Assembly (NCBI GenBank): GCA_014382245.1
Contig: JACNKC010000054.1
Coordinates: forward strand, 631-64,630
DNA from: Pseudomonadota bacterium
GTDB lineage: Bacteria > Desulfobacterota > Binatia > UBA1149
Length of the DNA: 64,000 nt
Reading direction: 5' to 3'
Numbering within the stretch: the stretch's first letter is position 1; each line of letters opens with the position of its first letter. The notes under the pieces are model-generated. The model was not told the origin of the DNA, made no database searches, and saw only the letters and a program-made list of their open reading frames with translations. A program made the position numbers and the translations under genes. Positions 28,590 to 64,000 of the stretch are shown here, piece by piece.

Positions 28590-30872
28590 ATGATAAGCAG
28601 GCGTTTTTTTGTTGGTGTTTTGAGATCTTTTCACCGCGGATCAGCCGCGCTGGCGACGGCTCTCCTGATCTTCAGCCCGGCCGTAAGCCTGGCCGCCGGG
28701 AGTACGAGCATCCTGGCCGCCAAGTGCGATGCGGCAATGTTCAAGACAGCGGGCAAGCTCCTGTCGTGCCGCCTGCGCGTTGACTCCAAGGCGGTAAAAG
28801 GCGGCGTGATGGCCGACTACTCCAAGTGCTCCGCCAAGTTCAACAAGAAGTGGGACAAGCTGATAGTCAAGGGTGCAGGTGAATGCGCGCCGGGGGCAGA
28901 AAGCTCGACCGTGGGCGCGACCCTGGACGACCAGGCCGGCGAGTTGGCGGCCGCGCTGGCGGGCAGCGGCTCGGACCCGGCTGCCAGGAAGTGCGAATCT
29001 GCTAAGCTCAAGGAGACCGGCAAGTACAGCTACTGTCGGCTCAAGGAAGACTCCAAGGCTGCAAAGAAGGGGTCAATCCAGGGCTATACACGTTGCCGCG
29101 ACAAGTTCGCGGCCAAGTGGGCAAAAATCGAGGCGCGCGGCGGTAGCAGTTGCCCGACCCTGGGCGATGTCGCCGCCATAGACGTCAGCGTGGTGGGTCA
29201 CGCTGGCCAGATCACGGTGGCCGTGTCGACGCGCAGCGACGAATTGAAGTTTGTCACGGTCGCCCCGACCTTCGTGACGGGAGCACCCTACGCCTCGGTG
29301 GATCCCGACCAGGGTGACCCCAACACCAGGGACGAGGAAGACGAGGGGCGCATGATAGTGCCCGACGGCCCGCTGGTAGGCGATCTTAACCCGGCCAACG
29401 ACGAGACCACCGTGGCGTCGCTCGATGGCGGCGTGTGCGCGGGCAAACCCGGGCAGTCCTGCAACGGCGACAGCGAGTGCCCCGACTGGGGCCGTTGTAT
29501 CAACTCCGAGGCCGTCCCCTGCACCGACCCGGCCGGCCAGGGTTGCTCGTGCAGCTCGAACGGGCAGCTTGCCTGCGCGACCGACGCCGATTGCCAGGAG
29601 TGCCTGGCGCCGGCTCGCGCGGCCGGGCGCGCCCCGGTGACCTTTCCGCGCATAACGGTTTTCCAGGGGGCCGTGTCTGCCTTGCCGTCGCTCAACCCAC
29701 CCGATTCAAATGTCGCCAGCGGCGGCGACAACAGCGTGGTGCTGGCTTCGGGCAACACCTACGCGGCTCTTTCGACCGACGGCGGTGCGACATTCGCAGG
29801 GGTGAACCCCTCCACCGTGTTTCCCAGTGCCGCGGTGGCCGGCGTGCACGGCGGGCTGTGCTGCGACCAGGTGATTCAGTACGTACCCGGGATAGACCGC
29901 TTCGTCTGGCTGATGCAGTACTGGAGGGATGCCACCGGGCCCAACATGCTGCGCATCGCCTCGGCCAGTGCCTCGGCCGTGGTTTCGAGCGGGGCCACTG
30001 CGTGGACTTACTGGGATCTCCCCTCCACCCTGTTCGGCCTGGGTACGGGCTGGATGGACTACCCGGACCTGGCCGTCGGCGACAACCATCTTTACATGAG
30101 CGTGGACCAGGTGGGCGTGGGCTTGCTGGTGGCGCGCATATCGCTGGCCCAGGTACAGGCCGGCGGCAGCATCAACATCGGCTACACCAACCCGGCCTTG
30201 TCGAGCACTGCCTACTTCAGCCACCTTACCCAGAACACCGGTGACGAGATTTTCTGGGCCGGCCACAACAACAGCAGCCAGATGCAGGTGTTTTCGTTGC
30301 ATTCGGCGTCGAACACTTACTTCTGGCGCAACGTCAATATCAACAGCTGGAACAACACCACTGCCAACTACACGTCTACCGCGGCAGACGGGACCGACTG
30401 GTACAGCTCGGCGCGCGGGGTAGGCGGGTCGTGGATAATCGGCGCGGCGCGCGCGGGTAACGACATCTGGTTCGCGTGGAACGCCGCCTCGGGCGGCGGC
30501 TTTGCCCAGCCTCACTCGCAGCTGGTGCGCGTCAATCCGTCCACCTACAACCTTGTCAGCCAGCAGCAGGTATGGAACGGCTCTGTTGCCTTCAGCCACC
30601 CCTGCCTGTCGTCGAGCCCGGCGGGCGAAATCAGCATGTCGCTGGCCTTTGGCGGTGCGGCCTTCGACGCCAGCCACGCAGTGGGCTACTGGGGAGACTA
30701 CGTGGTCTACTACCCACGCCTGAGCGATCACTCACTGGGCAGGCAGGGCGACTACTACGGGCTCAGGCGGGCGTCGCCGGACGCGAACCAGTTCTCGGCC
30801 TCGGGCTACAGCAGGCAGACCGTCGCGGGCACGCAACGCTACGAGCCGCATTACATTTTGTTCGGGAGGTAG
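28590..30872 (+). CDS. Large secreted protein: signal peptide, two tandem 4-Cys basic modules, Cys-rich linker, C-terminal roughly 450-aa beta-rich (BNR/propeller-like) domain
   Basis: MISRRFFVGVLRSF...AVSLAAG signal. Repeats AAKCDAAMFKTAGKLLSCRLRVDSKAVKGGVMADYSKCSAKFNKKWDKLIVKGAGEC and ARKCESAKLKETGKYSYCRLKEDSKAAKKGSIQGYTRCRDKFAAKWAKIEARGGSSC. Linker CAGKPGQSCNGDSECPDWGRCINSEAVPCTDPAGQGCSCSSNGQLACATDADCQEC. C-terminal motifs SGNTYAALSTDGGATF are BNR-like. Confidence 0.75.
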   Translation: MISRRFFVGVLRSFHRGSAALATALLIFSPAVSLAAGSTSILAAKCDAAMFKTAGKLLSCRLRVDSKAVKGGVMADYSKCSAKFNKKWDKLIVKGAGECAPGAESSTVGATLDDQAGELAAALAGSGSDPAARKCESAKLKETGKYSYCRLKEDSKAAKKGSIQGYTRCRDKFAAKWAKIEARGGSSCPTLGDVAAIDVSVVGHAGQITVAVSTRSDELKFVTVAPTFVTGAPYASVDPDQGDPNTRDEEDEGRMIVPDGPLVGDLNPANDETTVASLDGGVCAGKPGQSCNGDSECPDWGRCINSEAVPCTDPAGQGCSCSSNGQLACATDADCQECLAPARAAGRAPVTFPRITVFQGAVSALPSLNPPDSNVASGGDNSVVLASGNTYAALSTDGGATFAGVNPSTVFPSAAVAGVHGGLCCDQVIQYVPGIDRFVWLMQYWRDATGPNMLRIASASASAVVSSGATAWTYWDLPSTLFGLGTGWMDYPDLAVGDNHLYMSVDQVGVGLLVARISLAQVQAGGSINIGYTNPALSSTAYFSHLTQNTGDEIFWAGHNNSSQMQVFSLHSASNTYFWRNVNINSWNNTTANYTSTAADGTDWYSSARGVGGSWIIGAARAGNDIWFAWNAASGGGFAQPHSQLVRVNPSTYNLVSQQQVWNGSVAFSHPCLSSSPAGEISMSLAFGGAAFDASHAVGYWGDYVVYYPRLSDHSLGRQGDYYGLRRASPDANQFSASGYSRQTVAGTQRYEPHYILFGR

Positions 30873-56564: not shown

Positions 56565-57206
56565 TCAGCCTTTGCCGGCCTTCCAGAGCTCTACGTCGCC
56601 CGAAAGGGCCACGAAGCGCTGTACCAGGCGGGGCTGGCTGAATCCGGCCGACTCGAGTTCGTAGCCGGGGCCGCGGTCATCCGGGGGGTCCGGCCCTATG
56701 CCCGCGGCCTGGGCCAGCACGCGCGCGGGTGCTGCCGCCAGTGCCAGCCACGCGGGCCAGGCGGCCGACCAGTCGGCGACCAGCACGTGGCCCCCGGTGG
56801 CGAGCACTCTCCTGGTCTCGGCCAGCACCTGGTGGCGGGTGGCCAGTCCCAGTTCGTTGAGCACCATGGTGAGAGCGATGACATCAAAAGAGTTGTTTTC
56901 AAAGGGCAGCGATTGGCCAGAGCCTTCGAGCAGGTGCACGCGCTCTCCGCTGCCTCCCAGGCGCCGACGGGCTACATTGAGAGCGTCGGGGGTGGGCTCC
57001 ACACCATAGAGCAGCGCTCCCGGTTCGTCGTAGACCGCTCGCTCGAGCAGCGAACCCGTGCCGCAACCGACATCGAGCATGCGGGTGCCGGATTTTAACT
57101 CGCAGGCAGCAACCAGGTCTTCAATAAACGAGCTTTCCGGCCACAACAGTGACCGCCAGCTGCGGTTGAAGCTGTCGTACATTGACCCGGTTTCGGCAAC
57201 GATCAT
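56565..57206 (-). CDS. Class I SAM-dependent methyltransferase
   Basis: MLDVGCGTGSLLERA (motif I), VIALTMVLNEL, TGGHVLVADW. Confidence 0.8.
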   Translation of the reverse strand: MIVAETGSMYDSFNRSWRSLLWPESSFIEDLVAACELKSGTRMLDVGCGTGSLLERAVYDEPGALLYGVEPTPDALNVARRRLGGSGERVHLLEGSGQSLPFENNSFDVIALTMVLNELGLATRHQVLAETRRVLATGGHVLVADWSAAWPAWLALAAAPARVLAQAAGIGPDPPDDRGPGYELESAGFSQPRLVQRFVALSGDVELWKAGKG

Positions 57207-57323
57207 CTATCCATTATAGCCTACGCGGCGGCGGGCGCAGGCTATTTGTTGCAGGGCCCGTCCTTGTAAGCATTGTCGCCCGGTGGCAAGCATGGTGCTG
57301 CGGTGGGTACGGGGGCCTCAACG

Positions 57324-58739
57324 ATGAGCAGGGCGCTGGCCCTGTTGCTGCTGCTCGGGGCAGGTATGGCCGCGTTCTGTATCGACCTGCGTCCTGTTGT
57401 ATCGCCTCCCGGCCCAGACATTCTCCTGGTCACGATCGACACCCTCAGGGCCGACCATTGCTCGGCTTATGGCTACACCACTGAGACCACGCCTTTTCTT
57501 TCCGACCTGGCCCGCGGGGGGGTGCTCTACGAGCAGGCGTGGGCCCCCACGGCAACGACTGCTCCTTCGCACGCGGCACTGTTTGCGTCGAGGTGGCCGC
57601 GCTCGATGGGCGTGATGCAGAACGGCCAGCCGGTGCCTGGCGGCGAGCTCATGTTGGCCGAACTGATGTCAAGGGGTGGATACGCGACGGCTGCCTTCGT
57701 GAGCTCGCTGCCCGTGAGCTCGCGGTTCGGCTTCGGCCAGGGCTTTGATTACTTCGACGATGATTTCGACGCCGAGGGAGCCTCGCGCGGTAAACGCAAG
57801 ATCCCGGGTGATGGCAGCCGGGGCGCGCACCGGCTTGACCGTCGTGCCGACGCCACGGCCCGGCATTTTGAGAACTGGTTGCGGCGACGCGATGACCCGC
57901 GGCCACTGTTTGCCTGGCTGCACTTCGTTGACCCCCACTATCCCTACGGCCGCGATCGCCTGCTCGATCTCGAATGGCCCGATTCGGTTGGGTTGGCGCT
58001 GCGCGCTTACGACAGCGAAATACTGAGGGCCGACCGCGGTCTCGCGACGGTCGTTAAGGCTTTTCGCCGACACTCGGCCACTCGCTCCTCGGGCGGAGAA
58101 ACTTCGGACAGGGGTTCGGTGGTGCTGGTGACCTCCGACCACGGCGAGGGGCTGGGCGATCACGGCTGGAAGTTTCACGGCATCAACGTTTACGAAGAGG
58201 CCGTCAGGGTACCCCTGCTGCTGTGGGGCAGCCCGGGGATCGACTTAGGCGGTACCGTGACTGGCGATACCGTGGCGGGTAGCAAATTGGCAGGGCGGGT
58301 TCGCAGCCAGCCGGTGACCCTGCTCGACGTGGCGCCCACCCTGGCCGGCCTCGCGGGGATTGAGCGTGCCCCTTCTTTTCTTGGACGCGAGCTTACCGGG
58401 GCGCTGCCCGAGGATCACGCCGTGTTCCTGCAGCGACGCAACTACCGGTCGCGGAGGGTGAGGGGACGCGAAGTACGGGGGCCACTGACTGCCGTCGTTG
58501 CCCAGGGCCACAAGTACCTGGCCACGGTTTCGGGGGAGCAGTCGATTACCGAGGAGCTATACCACCTGGCCGATGACCCCGGCGAACTCAACGACCTGTC
58601 GGCATCCAGGCCCGGGCTGTCGTTGCGACTGGCCCGCCTGCTGTCGGACTGGGAGTCGGAGTACCCGGCCGTGAAGGGGGTTCCCGTTTCTGACCGCGAA
58701 GTCATAAAGGCGCTGCGGTTGCTGGGCTACGTGGAGTGA
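57324..58739 (+). CDS. Secreted sulfatase-fold (AlkP superfamily) protein lacking the FGly Cys/Ser; has T-A-P-S-H instead of C-x-P-x-R; probable phospho-ester hydrolase/transferase
   Basis: Signal peptide MSRALALLLLLGAGMAAFC. LLVTIDTLRADH metal site, TTAPSHAALFAS nucleophile region, VLVTSDHGEGLGDHGW, C-terminal ELYHLADDPGELNDL and tail ...LRLLGYVE. Alternative start 57273. Confidence 0.75.
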   Translation: MSRALALLLLLGAGMAAFCIDLRPVVSPPGPDILLVTIDTLRADHCSAYGYTTETTPFLSDLARGGVLYEQAWAPTATTAPSHAALFASRWPRSMGVMQNGQPVPGGELMLAELMSRGGYATAAFVSSLPVSSRFGFGQGFDYFDDDFDAEGASRGKRKIPGDGSRGAHRLDRRADATARHFENWLRRRDDPRPLFAWLHFVDPHYPYGRDRLLDLEWPDSVGLALRAYDSEILRADRGLATVVKAFRRHSATRSSGGETSDRGSVVLVTSDHGEGLGDHGWKFHGINVYEEAVRVPLLLWGSPGIDLGGTVTGDTVAGSKLAGRVRSQPVTLLDVAPTLAGLAGIERAPSFLGRELTGALPEDHAVFLQRRNYRSRRVRGREVRGPLTAVVAQGHKYLATVSGEQSITEELYHLADDPGELNDLSASRPGLSLRLARLLSDWESEYPAVKGVPVSDREVIKALRLLGYVE

Positions 58740-60154
58740 AGCGGGCGTTGCAAAGAACAGCCACCGCCTTGTCGGTGGCCTTGTTGTTTTCGTTGGCAGC
58801 CTGCAGCGAGCCGCCATCTACCGAGCCATTCCCCACTGGTCCGTATCCCGAAGCACCGCTGCTGCTGCTCGGCGTCGACGGTCTCGAGTGGGACGTGGTG
58901 CTCGAACTGGTCAAGCTCGGTGACCTGCCCGTGCTCGCCGGCCTCATGCGCCGCGGCGTGTACGGCAGTCTTGACGTCGATCGTCCCACCTTGTCGCCGG
59001 TGCTGTGGACAACGGCCGCCACCGGTCACCTCGCGGCTGAGCACGGGATTTCCGGCTTCGTGTACAGGCACAAAAAAAAGGTCAAGTTGTTTCGCAGCTT
59101 CGATCGTCGTCGCCCGGCTTTCTGGAACCTCCTGGGCATGGCTGGCCAGCGAGTAGCCACGGTGGGTTGGTGGCTCACCTGGCCCGCCGAAGAAGTGAAC
59201 GGCATCATGGTTTCCCAGGCCAACACGATCACCAACTCCATGCGCCGCGACGGCATGGGTATAAGCAAGAACTCGTTGTTTACCGGTCTGCAGCAGCAGG
59301 TATGGCCGCCGGCCATGGAGGCCAGCGTGTTGGCCGTACCCGGGCGGGTGGAGAGCGGGCTCGACGAGCACGTGGAGCGAGTACTGGGACGCCTGCCCGC
59401 TGATCTGCCCAAGGTAGAGGCGGTGCTCATGCGCCACTGTCGCTGGGCCTTGCGGGCCGACGAAACTTATCGCCGCGTGGCGCTCGACCTGATGGCTGTC
59501 GACGAGGGGTTTGACCTGCTGTCGGTATACTTCGGTGGGTCCGACGTGCTGGGGCACCGCTTCTGGCGCTATGCCTATCCGCAGCAGTACAAGCACCCGC
59601 CCACCGCCGATATGATAGAGGCCCTGGGCGACGTTCTGCACGACTACTACCGCTGGCTCGACACGACCCTCGGCGAGTTGATCGCTGCCGGGCCCGCTAA
59701 CGCCAACGTGGTCGTGGTGAGCGATCACGGCATGCACGCCATTCGTCCGCGCGCGCGTTTTGCTTCTGCCGACCGCATTCCGGCCCTCAACTCGGGTGGC
59801 CACTCGGACGCGCCCGATGCCTTGCTCATCGCCGCCGGTCCCTCGCTGCCGCTGGGCGACGGTGGCCTGCCGGAAAACCGCGAGCAGATCGTCGAGCTTG
59901 GCCGCCTGGTGGATCTCGCCCCTTCGCTGCTCGCGCTGCGGGGGCTTCCCTACGGGCTCAACATGACGGGCCGACCGATGCCGGCACTGCTGTCGGCGTC
60001 TTTTGCCGAGAAATTTCCGCTGACCTCGCGCCGTCGCTGGACCAGTGATGATTGGCGTCCGAGCTGGACCACTCCCTTTGCCGAGGAGCGTCTGCAGGAC
60101 GACGATTCGGAGCAGCGGCTGGAGCAACTGCGCTCGCTCGGTTACATAAAATAA
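58736..60154 (+). CDS. Lipoprotein, type I phosphodiesterase/nucleotide pyrophosphatase (NPP, AlkP superfamily) family
   Basis: Lipobox LFSLAAC; LLLGVDGLEWDVV; RPTLSPVLWTTAATGHLAAEHGI matches the NPP catalytic-Thr motif (T-x-P-x...TG...HGI); VVVSDHGMH; tail ...LRSLGYIK. ATGA overlap with the upstream paralog. Confidence 0.75.
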   Translation: MKRALQRTATALSVALLFSLAACSEPPSTEPFPTGPYPEAPLLLLGVDGLEWDVVLELVKLGDLPVLAGLMRRGVYGSLDVDRPTLSPVLWTTAATGHLAAEHGISGFVYRHKKKVKLFRSFDRRRPAFWNLLGMAGQRVATVGWWLTWPAEEVNGIMVSQANTITNSMRRDGMGISKNSLFTGLQQQVWPPAMEASVLAVPGRVESGLDEHVERVLGRLPADLPKVEAVLMRHCRWALRADETYRRVALDLMAVDEGFDLLSVYFGGSDVLGHRFWRYAYPQQYKHPPTADMIEALGDVLHDYYRWLDTTLGELIAAGPANANVVVVSDHGMHAIRPRARFASADRIPALNSGGHSDAPDALLIAAGPSLPLGDGGLPENREQIVELGRLVDLAPSLLALRGLPYGLNMTGRPMPALLSASFAEKFPLTSRRRWTSDDWRPSWTTPFAEERLQDDDSEQRLEQLRSLGYIK

Positions 60155-60164
60155 CTCCTGGGGG

Positions 60165-61577
60165 TCAGTCGAGGTAGCCCAGGGCCTTGAGGGCGGCGCG
60201 TTCAGATGGGCTGATGTCCGCCTCGCCGCCGTCCTGCCGGATGCGGGCCGGAGGATTGGCCTGCTTCCATGCCTCGAGGGCCGCGCTCATCCGGGCCAGG
60301 TGAACGGCTTGTCGTTCGGCCAGGTTGCTGCGTTCGTTCGGGTCAAGGTCGAGTCGGTACAGTTCGGGCGGCCGCTGTTCGGCGAGGATGAGTTTCCACG
60401 GTGTCTCGAACCACGCTTCTTCGCTGCCGGACAGGCGCTTAAGAGGCGGCGTACGAAAGGGGCGTCGCTGGGCATAGAACGGCACCACGGGCGGCTGGGT
60501 TTCTACGAACAGCCAGGATGACAGGTCGCGGCCCTGGGCCGCAAAAGGGCGGGTGGGATCGAGCAGGCCCGCGACGGTGGGCGCGAGATCCACCAGCGAC
60601 ACGGGCGTGGTTATTATCCGCGGCGCGAGCTTTCCCTGCCACTGCATTATGAGCGGCACGTGCAGGGCTTCTTCGTACAGCAGCGTGCCGTGGCCGAAGC
60701 CGATACCGGTTTCCTGTTGCCGTTCGGCCAGAGATTCGCCGTGGTCGGAGGTGACGACGACGAGCGGAGCCTGGCCGCGAGGTGACGATTGCCGGGCCAG
60801 GTTCACGATCGCGCCCAGCGCGCTGTCCACGTGGCTGACCTCACCGTCGTACAGCCCACGTGCGGCCTCGACCTGTCCGGCGGGGAGCACAGCCGAACGA
60901 AGAAAACGTGGCGGGTCGCTGAAGCGTTGCGGTAGCTGATCGTGGTGGGCCATCGTGCCACGACGCAGTGCCGACGGGGGCTCGTAGGGTTTGTGGGGTT
61001 CCCACAGGTGTACCCACAGGAACCAGGGCTCGTCGCCGTTGTCCGCGAGCCACTTGCGCGTGAGCTCGACCATCTCCCGGGAGTTGCGCCAGTGTTGCTC
61101 GCGCGGTGGCGAGTCGCTGCTGTCAAAGCCCGACAGGTTGCGGCGTGGCGGATCCAGTCCCAGGCGCGCCGTTATCGCCGCGGTGGTCTTGCCTTGCGCG
61201 CGCATCCAGTCGGCGAGCGTGGGCAGGTCGTCGACCGCGCGGGACGCGTTCACCAGCAGGCCGTGGCTGCGCGGGTACAGCCCGGTAAGAATGGAGGCGT
61301 GCGAGGGGTCGGTGGTGGGCACGGTGGCGTGTGCCGACTCAAAACGTACGCCGCCGGCCGCCAGCCGGTCGAGGGCCGGCGAGCCGTGGGCATTATTTTC
61401 GGGGCCGTATCCCCAGCTTCCCAGGCGATCGGCCCTCAGCGTGTCGATGGTAACCAGCAACACGTTGGCGTTGGCCCGGTCGGTGGCGGGTTCGGACTGG
61501 GAGCAGGCGCTGGCAAGCAAGGTCGCTGCGGCGAGCGTTGCGGCGATCCTGCCCGAAATCATCATCGTGACCTGCAT
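60165..61577 (-). CDS. Secreted sulfatase-fold (AlkP superfamily) protein with T-D-P-S-H in place of C-x-P-x-R
   Basis: Signal/lipobox-like LLASAC; LLVTIDTLRADRLG; PTTDPSHASILTGLYPRSHG; VVVTSDHGESL; ELYRLDLDPNERSNLA; tail ...LKALGYLD. Confidence 0.75.
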   Translation of the reverse strand: MQVTMMISGRIAATLAAATLLASACSQSEPATDRANANVLLVTIDTLRADRLGSWGYGPENNAHGSPALDRLAAGGVRFESAHATVPTTDPSHASILTGLYPRSHGLLVNASRAVDDLPTLADWMRAQGKTTAAITARLGLDPPRRNLSGFDSSDSPPREQHWRNSREMVELTRKWLADNGDEPWFLWVHLWEPHKPYEPPSALRRGTMAHHDQLPQRFSDPPRFLRSAVLPAGQVEAARGLYDGEVSHVDSALGAIVNLARQSSPRGQAPLVVVTSDHGESLAERQQETGIGFGHGTLLYEEALHVPLIMQWQGKLAPRIITTPVSLVDLAPTVAGLLDPTRPFAAQGRDLSSWLFVETQPPVVPFYAQRRPFRTPPLKRLSGSEEAWFETPWKLILAEQRPPELYRLDLDPNERSNLAERQAVHLARMSAALEAWKQANPPARIRQDGGEADISPSERAALKALGYLD

Positions 61578-61593
61578 GGAAGGTACAGGTTAG

Positions 61594-63063
61594 ATGTATG
61601 GCCCGTCCTTAGCTACAGTCGCCGCCGTGAGAGTCGTGATCGCAGCGTTGTTCAAGCGCAGGCTGAACGCGCGCGCCGCCGTACTGTTGTTGGCCCTGGG
61701 CGTGGTCAGCGCAGCCGGTTGCGTGGGCGACCCGGGGCCTGCGCCGCGTCGGGCCTACGACGATAAACCCAACGTCCTCCTGGTGAGTATTGACAGCCTT
61801 CGCGCTGACCACCTGGGCTTCATGGGCTACGAGCGCGCCACCAGCCCGGTAATGGATCGCCTGGCCAGGAGCGCGGTCGTATTCGACAACGCCCACAGCA
61901 GCAGCTCGTGGACGCTTCCTGCCCACGCCGCGCTCATGACCGGTCTGCCCGACAGCACCCACGGCGTGAGTCGTGGAGGGCGCGCTTTGCCGACCGCCGC
62001 CGAGACCCTGGCCGAGGCTTTTCGCGTGGCGGGCTATCGCACCATGGGCTTCTACTCCGGGCCCTTCCTTCATCCGGTGTACGGCTTCGGGCGCGGGTTT
62101 GACGACTACGTAGACTGCAGCTCCTATGGCCTGGGCTCGGCAGGCGCTGACCCCAAGCGCCTTCACTCCGCGTCGCACCGCGACGTGACGGGCCCCATCG
62201 TCAAGCGCGAGCTCGAGGCGAGGGTGGCGTCACTGGGTCGCGGACCGTGGTTTGTTTTTGTCCACCTGTGGGACGTTCACTACGATTACATACCGCCGGC
62301 ACCTTACGACACGATGTTTGATCCCGATTACACGGGCTCGATGACCGGCGTCAATTTCAAGGGCAACCGGGATTTTAAACCAGGAATGGACGAGGCCGAC
62401 CGTCGCCACGTGCTGGCGCTGTACGACGGCGAGATAGCCTGGACCGACGACACTCTGGGCAGCATCGTGCGGACCTTGCTCGCTGAGCAGGGTGATCTCG
62501 ATAACAGCATCGTGGTCGTGACCTCGGACCACGGCGACGAGTTTCTTGAGCACGGAGGCAAGGGCCATCGGCGCACGCTTTACGAAGAGGTGTTGAAGAT
62601 CCCGTTGCTGCTGCACTGGCCGGCGGGGCTCAAGTCACGTCGCGTCAGCGACGCAGTGGGCCTTGTAGACATCGCGCCGACCCTGCTCGACCTGGCCGGG
62701 CTGCCGCCGATGGCGGGCGTGCTGGGGTCGTCGTTGGCCGGGCTAGCCCGTGGTGGCGTCGAGGCAGACCGCGCCGTCCTGGCCGAGCTTAACGTGGCCC
62801 CCCACCTTCTGAGTGCGGTCGTGCAGGGTCAGTCCAAGCTGATTACCCGCCGCGATGGTCGCCGGTCCAAGTACTTTGACCTGCGCTCGGATCCGGGCGA
62901 GCAGCGGCCCCTGCCTGCAGATAGCGGGGGCGCTTTGTCTGGCCGCCTGCGTGGGCTGCTCGACGAGGCCAAGCAGCGGGCGCTCGAACCGCTGCTGCTG
63001 TCGCCGTCTGATCTTTCGCCGGCGATGGAAGAACAGCTGCGGCAGCTGGGCTACATAGACTGA
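61594..63063 (+). CDS. Secreted sulfatase-fold (AlkP superfamily) protein with T-L-P-A-H in place of C-x-P-x-R
   Basis: Signal peptide ...AVLLLALGVVSAAGC; LLVSIDSLRADHLG; SSWTLPAHAALMTGLPD; VVVTSDHGDEFLEHGGKGH; tail ...LRQLGYID. Confidence 0.75.
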   Translation: MYGPSLATVAAVRVVIAALFKRRLNARAAVLLLALGVVSAAGCVGDPGPAPRRAYDDKPNVLLVSIDSLRADHLGFMGYERATSPVMDRLARSAVVFDNAHSSSSWTLPAHAALMTGLPDSTHGVSRGGRALPTAAETLAEAFRVAGYRTMGFYSGPFLHPVYGFGRGFDDYVDCSSYGLGSAGADPKRLHSASHRDVTGPIVKRELEARVASLGRGPWFVFVHLWDVHYDYIPPAPYDTMFDPDYTGSMTGVNFKGNRDFKPGMDEADRRHVLALYDGEIAWTDDTLGSIVRTLLAEQGDLDNSIVVVTSDHGDEFLEHGGKGHRRTLYEEVLKIPLLLHWPAGLKSRRVSDAVGLVDIAPTLLDLAGLPPMAGVLGSSLAGLARGGVEADRAVLAELNVAPHLLSAVVQGQSKLITRRDGRRSKYFDLRSDPGEQRPLPADSGGALSGRLRGLLDEAKQRALEPLLLSPSDLSPAMEEQLRQLGYID

Positions 63064-63986
63064 TCGATCAGCATGTAGACCTTGACCTTGTGCGAGGCGA
63101 ACTGCTTGTCGGCTACCTGGCGGTAGTTTTTTTTCAACCAGCGGTTGCCGCCGGGCATAGGGCTGCGGGAGTGCAGCACTACGTCGGGAAGCCGCCCGTC
63201 GCGCAGCGGCTTCCACGGCAGATCGCCGCGGTCGTGCATCCACGCGGTCATGCCACGTATGCCCAGGCCCAGCGGCACGTGGTTGTCCATGTGCGAGAAG
63301 GCCAGCAGGTGGGTGCAGCCCACCGCGTAGATCGTCTGTCCCGACTCCTGCATGGCGTGCACGCGTTCGGCCAGGCGGTATTGCGAGGCGAGCTTGCGGC
63401 CGGCCGACAGGTTTCTACCGGGCAGCGCCAGGGGTAGCAGGACGGCGACAGACACTGCCAGCAGCAGGGCAGCGGCGGGGTAACGACTGTGCCGCGCCAG
63501 CGCTGACACGGGCAGGCCCAGCAACAGGCCTATACCCACGGCCATGAAGGGCTCGACCAGGAAGCGGTCGGGGAAGCCCTGGTAGTCGTGCAGCGTGAAC
63601 AGCAACGCGGCGTGGCCGCCTGCCACCAGCGCTATCCATCCCGGCCGGGCCGACAGCCAGCCGCCCACGCGAGATGGCCTGGCCAGGCACCAGAGCCAGG
63701 CTACGGCCGCCGCGGCCACCGACAGGGCCGGCAAAACGCTTGCGCTGTTGAAGCCCTCCTGCACGCGCAGGAACCAGACCACGTGGCGGCCGAGTAATTT
63801 CAATCCCAGGCCGTGGGTCATGTACATCGAGGGGTAGACGATCGTCTGTTCCCACTGCTGGGCCAGCGCGTCGTGGGCCACGAAGTAGAGCTCGTAGGGG
63901 AGAAGCGCCAGTGCGAAGCCGGCGCAGTACAGCGCAAAGCTGCGCAGGCGCCTGGGTGCTACGAGCAGGTCGACCAGCGCAAACAC
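63051..63986 (-). CDS. Polytopic membrane protein resembling the C-terminal two thirds of a GT-C type glycosyltransferase (ArnT/PMT/DUF2142-like); the N-terminus may lie beyond the window end
   Basis: 311 aa with at least 8 hydrophobic helices and a Trp/Arg-rich C-terminal periplasmic tail. The frame is still open 14 nt before the window edge, so the ATG at 63986 may not be the true start. Confidence 0.4.
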   Translation of the reverse strand: MFALVDLLVAPRRLRSFALYCAGFALALLPYELYFVAHDALAQQWEQTIVYPSMYMTHGLGLKLLGRHVVWFLRVQEGFNSASVLPALSVAAAAVAWLWCLARPSRVGGWLSARPGWIALVAGGHAALLFTLHDYQGFPDRFLVEPFMAVGIGLLLGLPVSALARHSRYPAAALLLAVSVAVLLPLALPGRNLSAGRKLASQYRLAERVHAMQESGQTIYAVGCTHLLAFSHMDNHVPLGLGIRGMTAWMHDRGDLPWKPLRDGRLPDVVLHSRSPMPGGNRWLKKNYRQVADKQFASHKVKVYMLIDQSM

Positions 63987-64000
63987 GGCAACGAGTGCCG

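Follow-up and report, generated by a model that had tools for sequence, protein, structure and literature searches.

An array of Thr- and Ser-type alkaline phosphatase superfamily proteins with a shared C-terminal LGY element: putative envelope phosphoesterases associated with a GT-C gene

Four consecutive genes, here called A to D, in the window (the whole 64-kb stretch of DNA that was analysed) encode alkaline phosphatase (AlkP) superfamily proteins that lack the formylglycine motif of sulfatases, carry a Thr (A, C and D) or a Ser (B) at the nucleophile position and end in the same short LGY element. We propose, at a probability of roughly 0.55, that in the envelope they act as metal-dependent phospho(di)esterases, together with a GT-C protein encoded next to them. 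The Thr-type and B families are both large and uncharacterised, and have a conserved end helix in common. The genes of the array and its flanks are as follows.

56565-57206, - strand: SAM methyltransferase gene, flank of the array
57324..58739, + strand: gene A, 471 aa, Thr-type S1-sulfatase-fold protein (PF00884, 1.4e-37)
58736..60154, + strand: gene B, 472 aa, NPP-like lipoprotein, lipobox LAAC (PF01663, 4.7e-27)
60165..61577, - strand: gene C, 470 aa, Thr-type S1-sulfatase-fold lipoprotein, lipobox LASAC (PF00884, 9.5e-42)
61594..63063, + strand: gene D, 489 aa, Thr-type S1-sulfatase-fold lipoprotein, lipobox SAAGC (PF00884, 8.6e-43)
63051..64000, - strand: GT-C membrane glycosyltransferase-like gene, truncated at the window end (528 aa in full)

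The four AlkP reading frames and both flanking genes described in an earlier note, made from the sequence alone, are all present, and the lengths of A, B, C and D are those of independent gene calls on the same contig. The stop codon of A and the start codon of B overlap by 4 nt (GTGA), and only 16 bp separate the start of C from the annotated start of D, whose true start probably lies downstream of 61594. The description of the four as paralogous holds for A, C and D, which are 29-37% identical in pairs and have both PF00884 and the two-domain S1 fold (E 1e-37 to 9e-43; the AF2 model of C has a pLDDT of 91.8, and D has a second Pfam match, SGSH_C, at 2e-10). It does not extend to B, which is ~25% identical to A and belongs to a different but related family; profile-profile comparison of the Thr-type and B families gave a probability of 99.4%. 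A is an additional paralogue confined to this lineage. As the note had read from signal peptides and lipoboxes, an aligned, lipobox-compatible Cys closes the hydrophobic N-terminus of all four proteins; A has a signal peptide with an atypical lipobox (MAAF-C). Among the aligned Thr-type sequences this Cys is at least 90% conserved, and the B-family alignment has it as consensus.

Where sulfatases have the formylglycine motif, the Thr-type proteins read:

57558..57572, + strand: A, T79-A-P-S-H
61299..61313, - strand: C, T89-D-P-S-H
61912..61926, + strand: D, T107-L-P-A-H (aligned to 7oz8 and 4upi)

In phmmer alignments with solved sulfatases, the T-L-P-A-H of D fell column for column on S-T-P-A-R of 7oz8 and also over x-G-P-S-R of 4upi, and the family profile placed T89 and H93 (C numbering) in the formylglycine Cys/Ser and Arg columns, which confirms that T-x-P-x-H replaces C/S-x-P-x-R. 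None of the four proteins has C/S-x-P/A-x-R at the nucleophile site, in line with the claim that they are not formylglycine sulfatases. Elsewhere in C, SDPPR (220) and SLAER (282) are chance matches away from the aligned nucleophile position. No FGE signature motifs were found within the 64-kb window. Close homologues already known as ordinary sulfatases, which would have spoken against the claim, were not found either: no close homologue has been characterised, and the best solved relatives are formylglycine enzymes at ~20% identity.

Seven residues are invariant in the Thr-type family (D45, T89, H190, H195, D278, H279 and H296, C numbering), among them the general-acid His195, and A has the active-site signature D,T,T,P,H..H,H,D,H,H. 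The sulfate-binding Lys/His/Lys columns (Lys and His of GKWHLG, and a second Lys before Y-E) read Arg, Gly and Gly/Arg. Furthermore, the spacing of T-x-P-x-H-x4-T-G-x2-P-x2-H-G and IDxLRAD in A, C and D is that of Xanthomonas NPP. Given this identical spacing, and since I, L, V or F can stand in place of the motif His in the Thr-type family at large, the replacement of Arg by His is less distinctive than the earlier note had supposed. Invariant D45, T89, D278 and H279 supply the Thr, acidic residue, Asp and His of a one-metal site, and correspond to the Zn1 site of MCR-1, whose ligands are E246, T285, D465 and H466, with further conserved His residues near the phospho-Thr (PMC5216409).

In B, profile alignment to Xanthomonas NPP located the predicted nucleophile:

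58994..58996, + strand: B, Ser87 codon

Ser87 (PTLSPVLW) aligned with T90 of the Xanthomonas enzyme (PSLTFPNH) and is invariant in 96 B homologues, so that the motif is of Ser type and not, as had been claimed for this gene, of the NPP Thr type; the assignment to the NPP family itself stands, with PF01663 matched at 95.9 bits against a cutoff of 23. A hydroxyl nucleophile is thus present at the N-terminus of the catalytic helix, as Ser rather than the Thr of NPPs. In the same alignment D48 took the place of the first metal Asp, D270/H274 fell on DEAGH and D330/H331 on SDHG. All five residues are invariant, and the sixth ligand of the NPP-type two-metal site, which has three Asp and three His, is probably the likewise invariant H356, which lies beyond the reach of the alignment. 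The AF2 model of B (pLDDT 90.8) has NPPs as its nearest folds.

The nearest folds of the C model in Foldseek were formylglycine sulfatases, choline sulfatase and phosphonate monoester hydrolases (PMHs), with neither EptA nor LtaS among the top 50 matches, and the family profile matched the dimeric arylsulfatases 4upi (E 5e-64) and 4upl (E 1e-62). Overall, the best matches of A, C and D were SpAS1/SpAS2 (4upi, 4upl), PMHs (2vqr, 2w8s, 4upk) and choline sulfatase (6fny, 6g5z), with E-values down to 5e-64, TM of 0.63-0.70 and ~20% identity. Common to all are the two-domain S1 fold, an SGSH_C-like subdomain, a D-x-L-R-x-D first strand, a D-H metal pair, a conserved general-acid His and family-specific C-terminal extensions. 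In the known enzymes C-x-P-x-R yields the formylglycine, and the Arg and both Lys are retained. A, C and D instead have a Thr nucleophile, His for Arg, Arg and Gly/Arg for the Lys residues, and the added His190 and His296; their LGY tail is unrelated in sequence to the tails of these relatives. Nucleotide pyrophosphatase/phosphodiesterases (NPPs; Xanthomonas NPP 2gsn, ENPP1-7) and the phosphonoacetate hydrolase PhnA align with B in nucleophile and metal ligands (PF01663), and the NPP nucleophile-helix motif, its spacing and the IDxLRAD strand also occur in A, C and D, although the sulfatase C-terminal subdomain of these three is absent from NPPs. B differs from NPPs in its Ser for Thr, Trp for the motif His, large helical insertions, lipobox and LGY tail, at TM of 0.4-0.54 and 13-17% identity. 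EptA/MCR-1, LtaS, OpgB and CptA resemble the Thr-type proteins: they act on the periplasmic side and have a Thr nucleophile with a D/E-D-H metal site and additional conserved His residues close to it. However, they have an N-terminal multi-helix membrane domain and no sulfatase C-terminal subdomain, whereas only a signal peptide with the lipobox Cys precedes the catalytic domain in A-D.

The C-terminal element L-[RK]-x-LGY-x-x ends all four proteins, as the earlier note had observed:

58713..58736, + strand: A tail, LRLLGYVE
60128..60151, + strand: B tail, LRSLGYIK, end of helix 458-467 in the model
60168..60191, - strand: C tail, LKALGYLD, end of helix 457-465 in the model
63037..63060, + strand: D tail, LRQLGYID

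A six-frame translation of the window held exactly four matches to [LMIV]xx[LMIV]GYx{1,3} followed by a stop, namely those of A-D. Mean top-residue frequency was 0.74 and 0.86 over the last 12 positions as against 0.34 and 0.35 in the preceding linker. In the models of C and B the tail forms a helix after a low-confidence linker, with a pLDDT of ~70 that is compatible with packing in cis, packing in trans or a free tail. Across the loci, 68 of 69 LGY-ending ORFs came from the two AlkP families, and no non-AlkP protein among 3,459 neighbourhood ORFs had the motif. Nearly all Thr-type neighbours carried the tail and none of the five formylglycine-type neighbours did, which answers in the negative the question whether LGY is merely the last strand of all PF00884 proteins. 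The element is therefore no part of the fold common to PF00884 proteins, and it goes together with Thr-type sites. In fusion proteins it is internal, directly before a Gly-rich linker to TPR or arylsulfotransferase domains, and some homologues have short acidic extensions after it. Because of these internal occurrences a terminal sorting tag, one of the two roles the note had considered, is unlikely; moreover, only 1-2 polar residues follow LGY, in place of the hydrophobic helix and basic tail that follow the motif of a sorting signal. The other, structural role fits better: the element is probably a conserved helix that follows a variable linker and forms the end of the catalytic module. Choline sulfatase, PMHs and dimeric arylsulfatases have conserved C-terminal extensions that mediate oligomerisation and can complete a neighbouring active site (PMC5870055). 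We also observed that simple self-packing gives no account of why the same tail sequence occurs in two different families.

Neither the active site nor the array is rare. At E<=1e-10, homologues of C number more than 7,354; T-x-P-x-H occurs in 82 of the best 120 of these, and C/S-x-P-x-R in none. Thr occurs in 30 of the 59 PF00884 seed sequences according to SulfAtlas (PMC5066984). B-type relatives were found in at least 533 species-level genomes of Planctomycetota, Myxococcota, Binatia, Acidobacteriota and Krumholzibacteriia, and arrays mixing the Thr-type and B families occupy ~28 of 82 loci. The Thr/His four-gene array can thus no longer be called unusual, as it had been.

The GT-C gene is convergent with D, with a 13-bp overlap. 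Its full 528-aa product matched PF15971 at 40 bits (cutoff 33) and PMT_2 weakly, and has seven to nine hydrophobic segments, thereby combining a GT-C/PMT-type match with polytopic topology. PF15971 has been treated as homologous to GT-C/PMT-type transferases (PMC7801869). Members of this family adjoin AlkP-LGY genes at loci L005, L008, L020, L024, L032, L061, L087, L088, L089, L091, L093 and L094. The order C(-) D(+) GT-C(-), or its mirror image with B, recurs at L005, L008, L087, L088, L091 and L093, with C and D orthologues found at L005 and L008; L020, L024, L032 and L089 have divergent GT-C/B pairs. Among eight newly sampled GT-C homologues, six had AlkP neighbours and two had none. The association is limited to some lineages (Myxococcota, Binatia and 'Deltaproteobacteria' MAGs), and most Planctomycetota loci are without this GT-C. 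Hence, in some lineages, B, C, D and the small GT-C family (PF15971) make up a gene module that has been conserved. The earlier note, which listed the GT-C gene as a flank, had overlooked it as a module partner.

The comparisons show directly to which families the proteins belong, which residues they carry, that the tail is conserved and tied to Thr-type sites, and that the genes are associated; what the enzymes do chemically, what the tail is for and what substrate they meet in the cell we infer as follows. A, C and D would be lipid-anchored periplasmic or envelope enzymes with the two-domain S1-sulfatase/PMH fold, an NPP-type Thr helix and no formylglycine, and B a remote member of the NPP family with Ser as nucleophile and its two-metal site intact. 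The Thr or Ser catalytic residue makes cleavage of a phosphate ester most likely: its alkoxide, assisted by metal, would attack a mono- or diester, possibly a phosphonate ester, and the covalent phospho-enzyme would then be hydrolysed, so that the proteins would be phosphoesterases and not sulfatases. The earlier suggestion of phosphoester rather than sulfate substrates agrees with this, as a Thr nucleophile would point to phosphoryl transfer. In both families the catalytic module would end with the short helix E-x-L-x-x-L-R-x-L-G-Y-[IVL], most likely packed on its own or a neighbouring protomer, as the tails of the closest solved relatives do. Since B, C, D and the GT-C form a conserved module, enzymes and GT-C probably share a phosphorylated glycolipid or glycan at the periplasmic membrane face; phosphate-linked groups may, as one possibility, be removed or trimmed before or after glycosylation. 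EptA with ArnT exemplifies a phospho-enzyme and GT-C pair that remodels the envelope (lipid A). The likeness here lies in a periplasm-facing phospho-enzyme and a GT-C that are encoded together or work on one envelope molecule, a link made in the present case by the genome only, and in sequence the neighbouring GT-C is related to ArnT only through the GT-C/PMT-like fold family.

The precedent of EptA also suggests that A-D could be phospho-group transferases, in which a membrane lipid would donate phosphoethanolamine, phosphoglycerol or the like to the Thr or Ser, for delivery to a GT-C-made glycan or lipid, as lipoprotein-anchored counterparts of EptA, OpgB or LtaS. To our knowledge, every characterised Thr-type PF00884 enzyme, LtaS and OpgB included, is a transferase and none is a hydrolase. 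MCR-1 belongs to the same set (PMC5216409), a lipid anchor would hold the enzymes at the membrane, and the conserved GT-C link fits as well, as do weak, partial NCBIfam matches to EptA, MCR and CptA models in the vicinity of SDHGE. Nevertheless, we consider transfer somewhat unlikely: the proteins lack a transmembrane domain with which lipid donors could be reached, B is nearest to hydrolytic NPPs, and soluble hydrolases are much closer (E 5e-64) than EptA-type models (~1e-8). The matches to these models lie far below cutoff (at best 20-34 bits against 400-1250). That the proteins are dead or regulatory binders of a phosphorylated ligand, like YejM/PbgA, would suit the altered cationic residues (Arg to His, GKWHLG Lys to Arg, second Lys to Gly or Arg) and a weak NCBIfam match of D to LapC/YejM, but it is very improbable, because distant phyla show no variation in the nucleophile or in any metal ligand, which a pseudoenzyme would not be expected to maintain. 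Least credible of all is a true sulfatase independent of formylglycine, even though the overall fold and best profile matches are those of sulfatases and a Phycisphaerales locus has such genes in one operon with two canonical formylglycine sulfatases. There is no convertible Cys or Ser, and the sulfate-binding Arg and Lys are replaced. A sulfate ester on Ser or Thr is not readily released, and we know of no Thr-dependent sulfatase. The SulfAtlas authors likewise excluded Thr variants from the sulfatases (PMC5066984).

The LGY element could also be a docking or recognition peptide for a shared partner (the GT-C, a TPR protein, or an export or sorting factor) or serve hetero-oligomer assembly of the AlkP enzymes. 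Two different families keep nearly the same sequence, conserved above most of the protein and set on a flexible linker; their genes cluster in the mixed arrays, and fusion to TPR domains, which bind peptides, is frequent. We nevertheless hold this role to be unlikely. Internal LGY motifs, before Gly-rich linkers and domains or acidic extensions, mean that a free C-terminus is not required; the motif is confined to AlkP proteins in the neighbourhoods; no conserved partner gene across phyla was found in the loci; and the hydrophobic segment of PEP-CTERM- or LPXTG-type signals is missing. Quite unlikely, and the most speculative form of docking, is a hitherto unrecognised periplasmic machine of Myxococcota-, Binatia- and 'Deltaproteobacteria'-like bacteria, in which LGY would bring together the Ser-type NPP-like protein, two or three Thr-type sulfatase-fold lipoproteins and the dedicated GT-C, and which would remodel phosphate-linked groups on a glycolipid or glycan of the envelope.

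The Thr-type proteins bear on annotation. Their group includes thousands of database entries under the name 'sulfatase' or 'arylsulfatase A-like', a name that is almost certainly wrong for them; to tell them from real formylglycine sulfatases, the LGY tail together with the D/T/HH/DH/H signature offers a simple criterion, and the correction affects counts of 'sulfatase-rich' genomes such as those of Planctomycetota. With an S1-sulfatase fold and an NPP-type nucleophile helix, the group stands between two well-studied branches of the alkaline phosphatase superfamily, and its sister NPP-like family has the identical layout of lipobox, core, linker and tail. The conserved association with a small GT-C family that lacks any annotation suggests an envelope pathway not yet explored, in lineages for which metagenomes are almost the sole source.

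Four genes of the alkaline phosphatase (AlkP) superfamily, A to D, lie next to each other in the window and are followed by a membrane glycosyltransferase-like (GT-C) gene. The four ORFs that the earlier note described were all recovered when genes were called independently on this metagenomic contig.

AlkP-superfamily genes and the adjacent GT-C gene (E-values from Pfam)
57324-58739, + strand: A, 471 aa, PF00884 (E 1.4e-37)
58736-60154, + strand: B, 472 aa, PF01663 (E 4.7e-27)
60165-61577, - strand: C, 470 aa, PF00884 (E 9.5e-42)
61594-63063, + strand: D, 489 aa, PF00884 (E 8.6e-43)
63051-64000, - strand: GT-C gene, cut by the window end

A, C and D, sulfatase-fold proteins with Thr at the formylglycine column (hereafter Thr-type), also gave weaker matches to SGSH_C, the model of the sulfatase C-terminus, and none of the four products reached the cutoff of any NCBIfam model. 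Pairwise identity is 29-37% among A, C and D, and about 25% between B and A. In all four, a hydrophobic N-terminus is followed by a Cys at the same alignment position, at least 90% conserved among the aligned Thr-type sequences and the consensus residue for the B family; we therefore regard them as lipoproteins, the lipobox of A (MAAF-C) being atypical. The stop codon of A and the start codon of B overlap by 4 nt (GTGA), and the convergent D and GT-C genes overlap by 13 bp. C and D are divergently oriented. Because their annotated starts (61577 and 61594) are only 16 bp apart and D carries a long N-terminal extension ahead of its signal peptide, the true start of D is probably further downstream. 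Elsewhere in the window, a 760-aa ORF (28590-30872, +) with high third-position GC matched no Pfam family at E<=1e-5.

In D, each position of T-L-P-A-H pairs with its counterpart in S-T-P-A-R of 7oz8, and the motif also lies on the equivalent one in 4upi. A family profile built from 59 sequences matched the dimeric arylsulfatases 4upi (E 5e-64) and 4upl (E 1e-62), which allowed the active site to be mapped residue by residue.

Residues of C and their sulfatase counterparts, from the family-profile alignment to 4upi and 4upl (C numbering)
D45: first metal Asp of sulfatases
T46: Asp or Gln adjoining the first metal Asp
T89: formylglycine Cys
H93: Arg of C-x-P-x-R
R138: Lys of GKWHLG
H195: general-acid His
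D278/H279: D-N(H) metal pair
H296: extra invariant His, immediately before the second-Lys position
G297 (Arg in D): second Lys

Across the wider Thr-type family D45, T89, P91, H190, H195, D278, H279 and H296 are fixed, and the His position of the motif is also occupied by I, L, V or F. A search of A to D for a conventional formylglycine motif elsewhere returned only chance matches in C (SDPPR at 220 and SLAER at 282), neither at the nucleophile position. No motifs of the formylglycine-generating enzyme (FGE) were found within the 64-kb window; radical-SAM pattern matches do occur there. In A, C and D, the pattern T-x-P-x-H-x4-T-G-x2-P-x2-H-G and the IDxLRAD strand stand at exactly the spacing seen in the Xanthomonas NPP, so the Thr/His motif is not a peculiar sulfatase variant. 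For B, to which the earlier note had assigned a Thr nucleophile, alignment of PTLSPVLW with PSLTFPNH of the Xanthomonas NPP identified Ser87 instead. This residue is invariant in 96 homologues, and D48, D270/H274 and D330/H331 of B fall on the NPP metal ligands in the alignment to the same enzyme.

AlphaFold2 models of C and B were of high confidence (pLDDT 91.8 and 90.8, respectively). The nearest folds to the C model are those of formylglycine S1 sulfatases, choline sulfatase and phosphonate monoester hydrolases (TM 0.63-0.70, 18-23% identity), with neither EptA nor LtaS among its top 50 fold matches. The B model is a distant NPP (TM 0.4-0.54, 13-17% identity), and the single B sequence matched no solved structure. 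Profile-profile alignment joined the Thr-type and B families end to end, lipobox and tail included (99.4%, E 9e-22). In one uncultured bacterium, six NPP-family paralogues stand in tandem (L086, 2324-10274).

A to D share the C-terminal element L-[RK]-x-LGY-x-x, the LGY tail, and are the only genes in the window with this motif followed by a stop. Among 3,459 neighbourhood ORFs from 86 loci, 69 end with the motif, 68 of them from the two AlkP families, and no other protein family bearing the tail was found among these ORFs or elsewhere in the window. All 120 best B homologues contain ERLEQLRSLGY[IVL]x, at the extreme end in 90 and followed by a short acidic or low-complexity extension in the rest. 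In the C family the tail is either terminal or located at residues 400-460, directly ahead of a Gly-rich linker and a TPR region; in 700-aa Acidobacteriota proteins the LGY helix precedes a GGSGGGG-type linker and a long TPR region (e.g., P0055, residue 428). Two B-type proteins of about 820 aa, P0166 and P0173, carry arylsulfotransferase domains (PF05935/PF14269) behind the NPP-LGY module and a Gly-rich linker, so that a phosphodiesterase-like and a sulfotransferase-like enzyme are unexpectedly fused. A free C-terminus is thus probably not needed by the tail. The mean top-residue frequency in the two families is 0.74/0.86 over the last 12 positions, 0.34/0.35 over the preceding 25 and 0.52/0.55 overall. 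In each model a low-confidence linker leads into the tail, which is helical (C 457-465, B 458-467) at pLDDT about 70.

That the tail is the generic end of PF00884 proteins was ruled out: Pfam models stop about 30-130 residues earlier, alignments to solved sulfatases end ahead of it, and the motif, found in nearly all Thr-type neighbours, is missing from all five neighbours that have a canonical formylglycine signature. The tail closes the catalytic module of two sister families and is not a general PF00884 feature. Choline sulfatase, phosphonate monoester hydrolases and dimeric arylsulfatases oligomerise through C-terminal extensions particular to each family, and that of choline sulfatase additionally serves to complete the adjacent active site (PMC5870055). 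These closest solved relatives offer a precedent, by analogy with which the LGY tail may pack in a similar way.

The GT-C gene encodes a 528-aa polytopic protein that we assign to the GT-C-type transferases because it matches PF15971 at 40 bits (cutoff 33) and PMT_2 weakly. It belongs to a small family of 53 clusters, every one labelled 'hypothetical', in which the nearest cluster (92% identity) is from a MAG named 'Deltaproteobacteria bacterium', and the family profile matched no solved structure. The earlier note listed this gene as a flank and missed a conserved module, which recurs in the following loci.

Recurrent layouts of the GT-C module
L005, L087: alternating Thr-type, GT-C, Thr-type, GT-C, NPP-like; one GT-C/Thr-type pair with a 4-bp overlap
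L008: C(-) D(+) GT-C(-) B(+)
L088, L091, L093: B(-) GT-C(+) S(-) S(+), at the window's chromosomal position between PEPCK-methyltransferase and BolA-glutaredoxin
L020, L024, L032, L089: divergent GT-C/B pairs
L094: three Thr-type genes around GT-C

In L003 (1-6396), from a strain variant of the window's organism, C, D and GT-C are kept, while A and B are missing, their place being occupied by a Macro-domain gene and an ORF of 301 aa that matches the NPP profile weakly. Given these layouts and L003, the conserved unit is B, GT-C and two Thr-type genes, with A as an extra paralogue. Beside two of the GT-C homologues there is no AlkP gene. In L094 (1055-6004, +), three consecutive genes for 516-572-aa proteins with no Pfam match lie directly upstream of GT-C on the same strand, flanked by the three Thr-type genes; their products may be further membrane partners.

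Outside the GT-C-bearing lineages, the two AlkP families cluster together in about 28 of 82 loci, without this GT-C. Clustering of all ORFs of the 82 loci yielded no neighbour conserved across phyla, only lineage-level synteny (e.g., ClpP, LpxB, an aminotransferase and an ABC permease), and the SAM methyltransferase keeps its position only inside the window's own lineage. Large membrane proteins beside B homologues are a mix of SNF, OPT and Nramp transporters, a permease and two families without a Pfam match. A 540-aa polytopic family with no Pfam match and a conserved DDAYISFRYARN motif (L046 4475-6115, L050 1623-3251, L016 6276-7874) is encoded directly downstream of the NPP-LGY gene in L046 and L050 and about 1.2 kb off in L016; it could represent a GT-C that has diverged strongly (hhalign against the GT-C profile, E 0.02 only). 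On the Phycisphaerales chromosome CP070685.1 (L007, 1190-11482, +), six co-directional genes encode a Thr-type protein (794 aa), two canonical formylglycine-type sulfatases (DD..CxPxR..DN..K), a weak GT-C-like protein, a second Thr-type protein (649 aa) and an NPP-LGY protein, so that true sulfatases and Thr-type enzymes appear to share one operon. The lipid-A-disaccharide synthase gene lpxB occurs in the same locus as a B homologue in L047, L049, L052, L053, L067 (about 1.3 kb apart), L073 and L075, all labelled Phycisphaerales, Phycisphaeraceae or Planctomycetota. This co-location, noted in view of the proposed envelope role, is probably lineage synteny.

More than 7,354 homologues of C score E<=1e-10 and go by database names such as 'arylsulfatase A-like', 'choline-sulfatase' and 'sulfatase-like hydrolase/transferase'. 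Pattern matching of the best 120 found T-x-P-x-H in 82 and C/S-x-P-x-R in none; about half of these 120 are the 700-aa Acidobacteriota forms with C-terminal TPR repeats (P0051-P0120). Confirmed B-type relatives come from 533 species-level genomes of Planctomycetota, Krumholzibacteriia, Binatia, Acidobacteriota and Myxococcota, the kept loci all being MAGs. The SulfAtlas authors noted Thr in 30 of 59 PF00884 seed sequences and would not class those 30 as sulfatases (PMC5066984). On these counts and the SulfAtlas remark, the Thr/His arrangement, considered unusual in the earlier note, is widespread and uncharacterised rather than rare. Literature searches found no characterised member of either AlkP family.

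Alignments give A to D a hydroxyl nucleophile, an intact D/T(S)/D/H metal site and additional invariant His residues; the cationic sulfate-binding residues are replaced and a lipid anchor is present. To our knowledge, all characterised Ser-/Thr-type members of the superfamily transfer phosphoryl or phosphonyl groups. For this reason, and because the fold and nearest relatives are those of soluble hydrolases, we infer that a phospho-Thr/Ser intermediate would be formed with metal assistance and then hydrolysed. In MCR-1, one of these characterised members, Zn1 is bound by E246, T285, D465 and H466, the conserved His395 and His478 lie beside the phospho-Thr, and autophosphorylation has been observed (PMC5216409). 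Transfer of the phospho-group instead of its hydrolysis is a serious alternative to the hydrolytic reading. With no formylglycine motif at the site and the sulfate-binding residues replaced, the original suggestion of phosphoryl chemistry rather than sulfatase activity pointed in the right direction.

A to D represent a new and uncharacterised variant within the alkaline phosphatase superfamily, one that is systematically mis-annotated and occurs very widely in uncultured phyla. As their GT-C partner is conserved, its association with the AlkP enzymes suggests a common substrate, which might be a phosphorylated envelope glycolipid or glycan.
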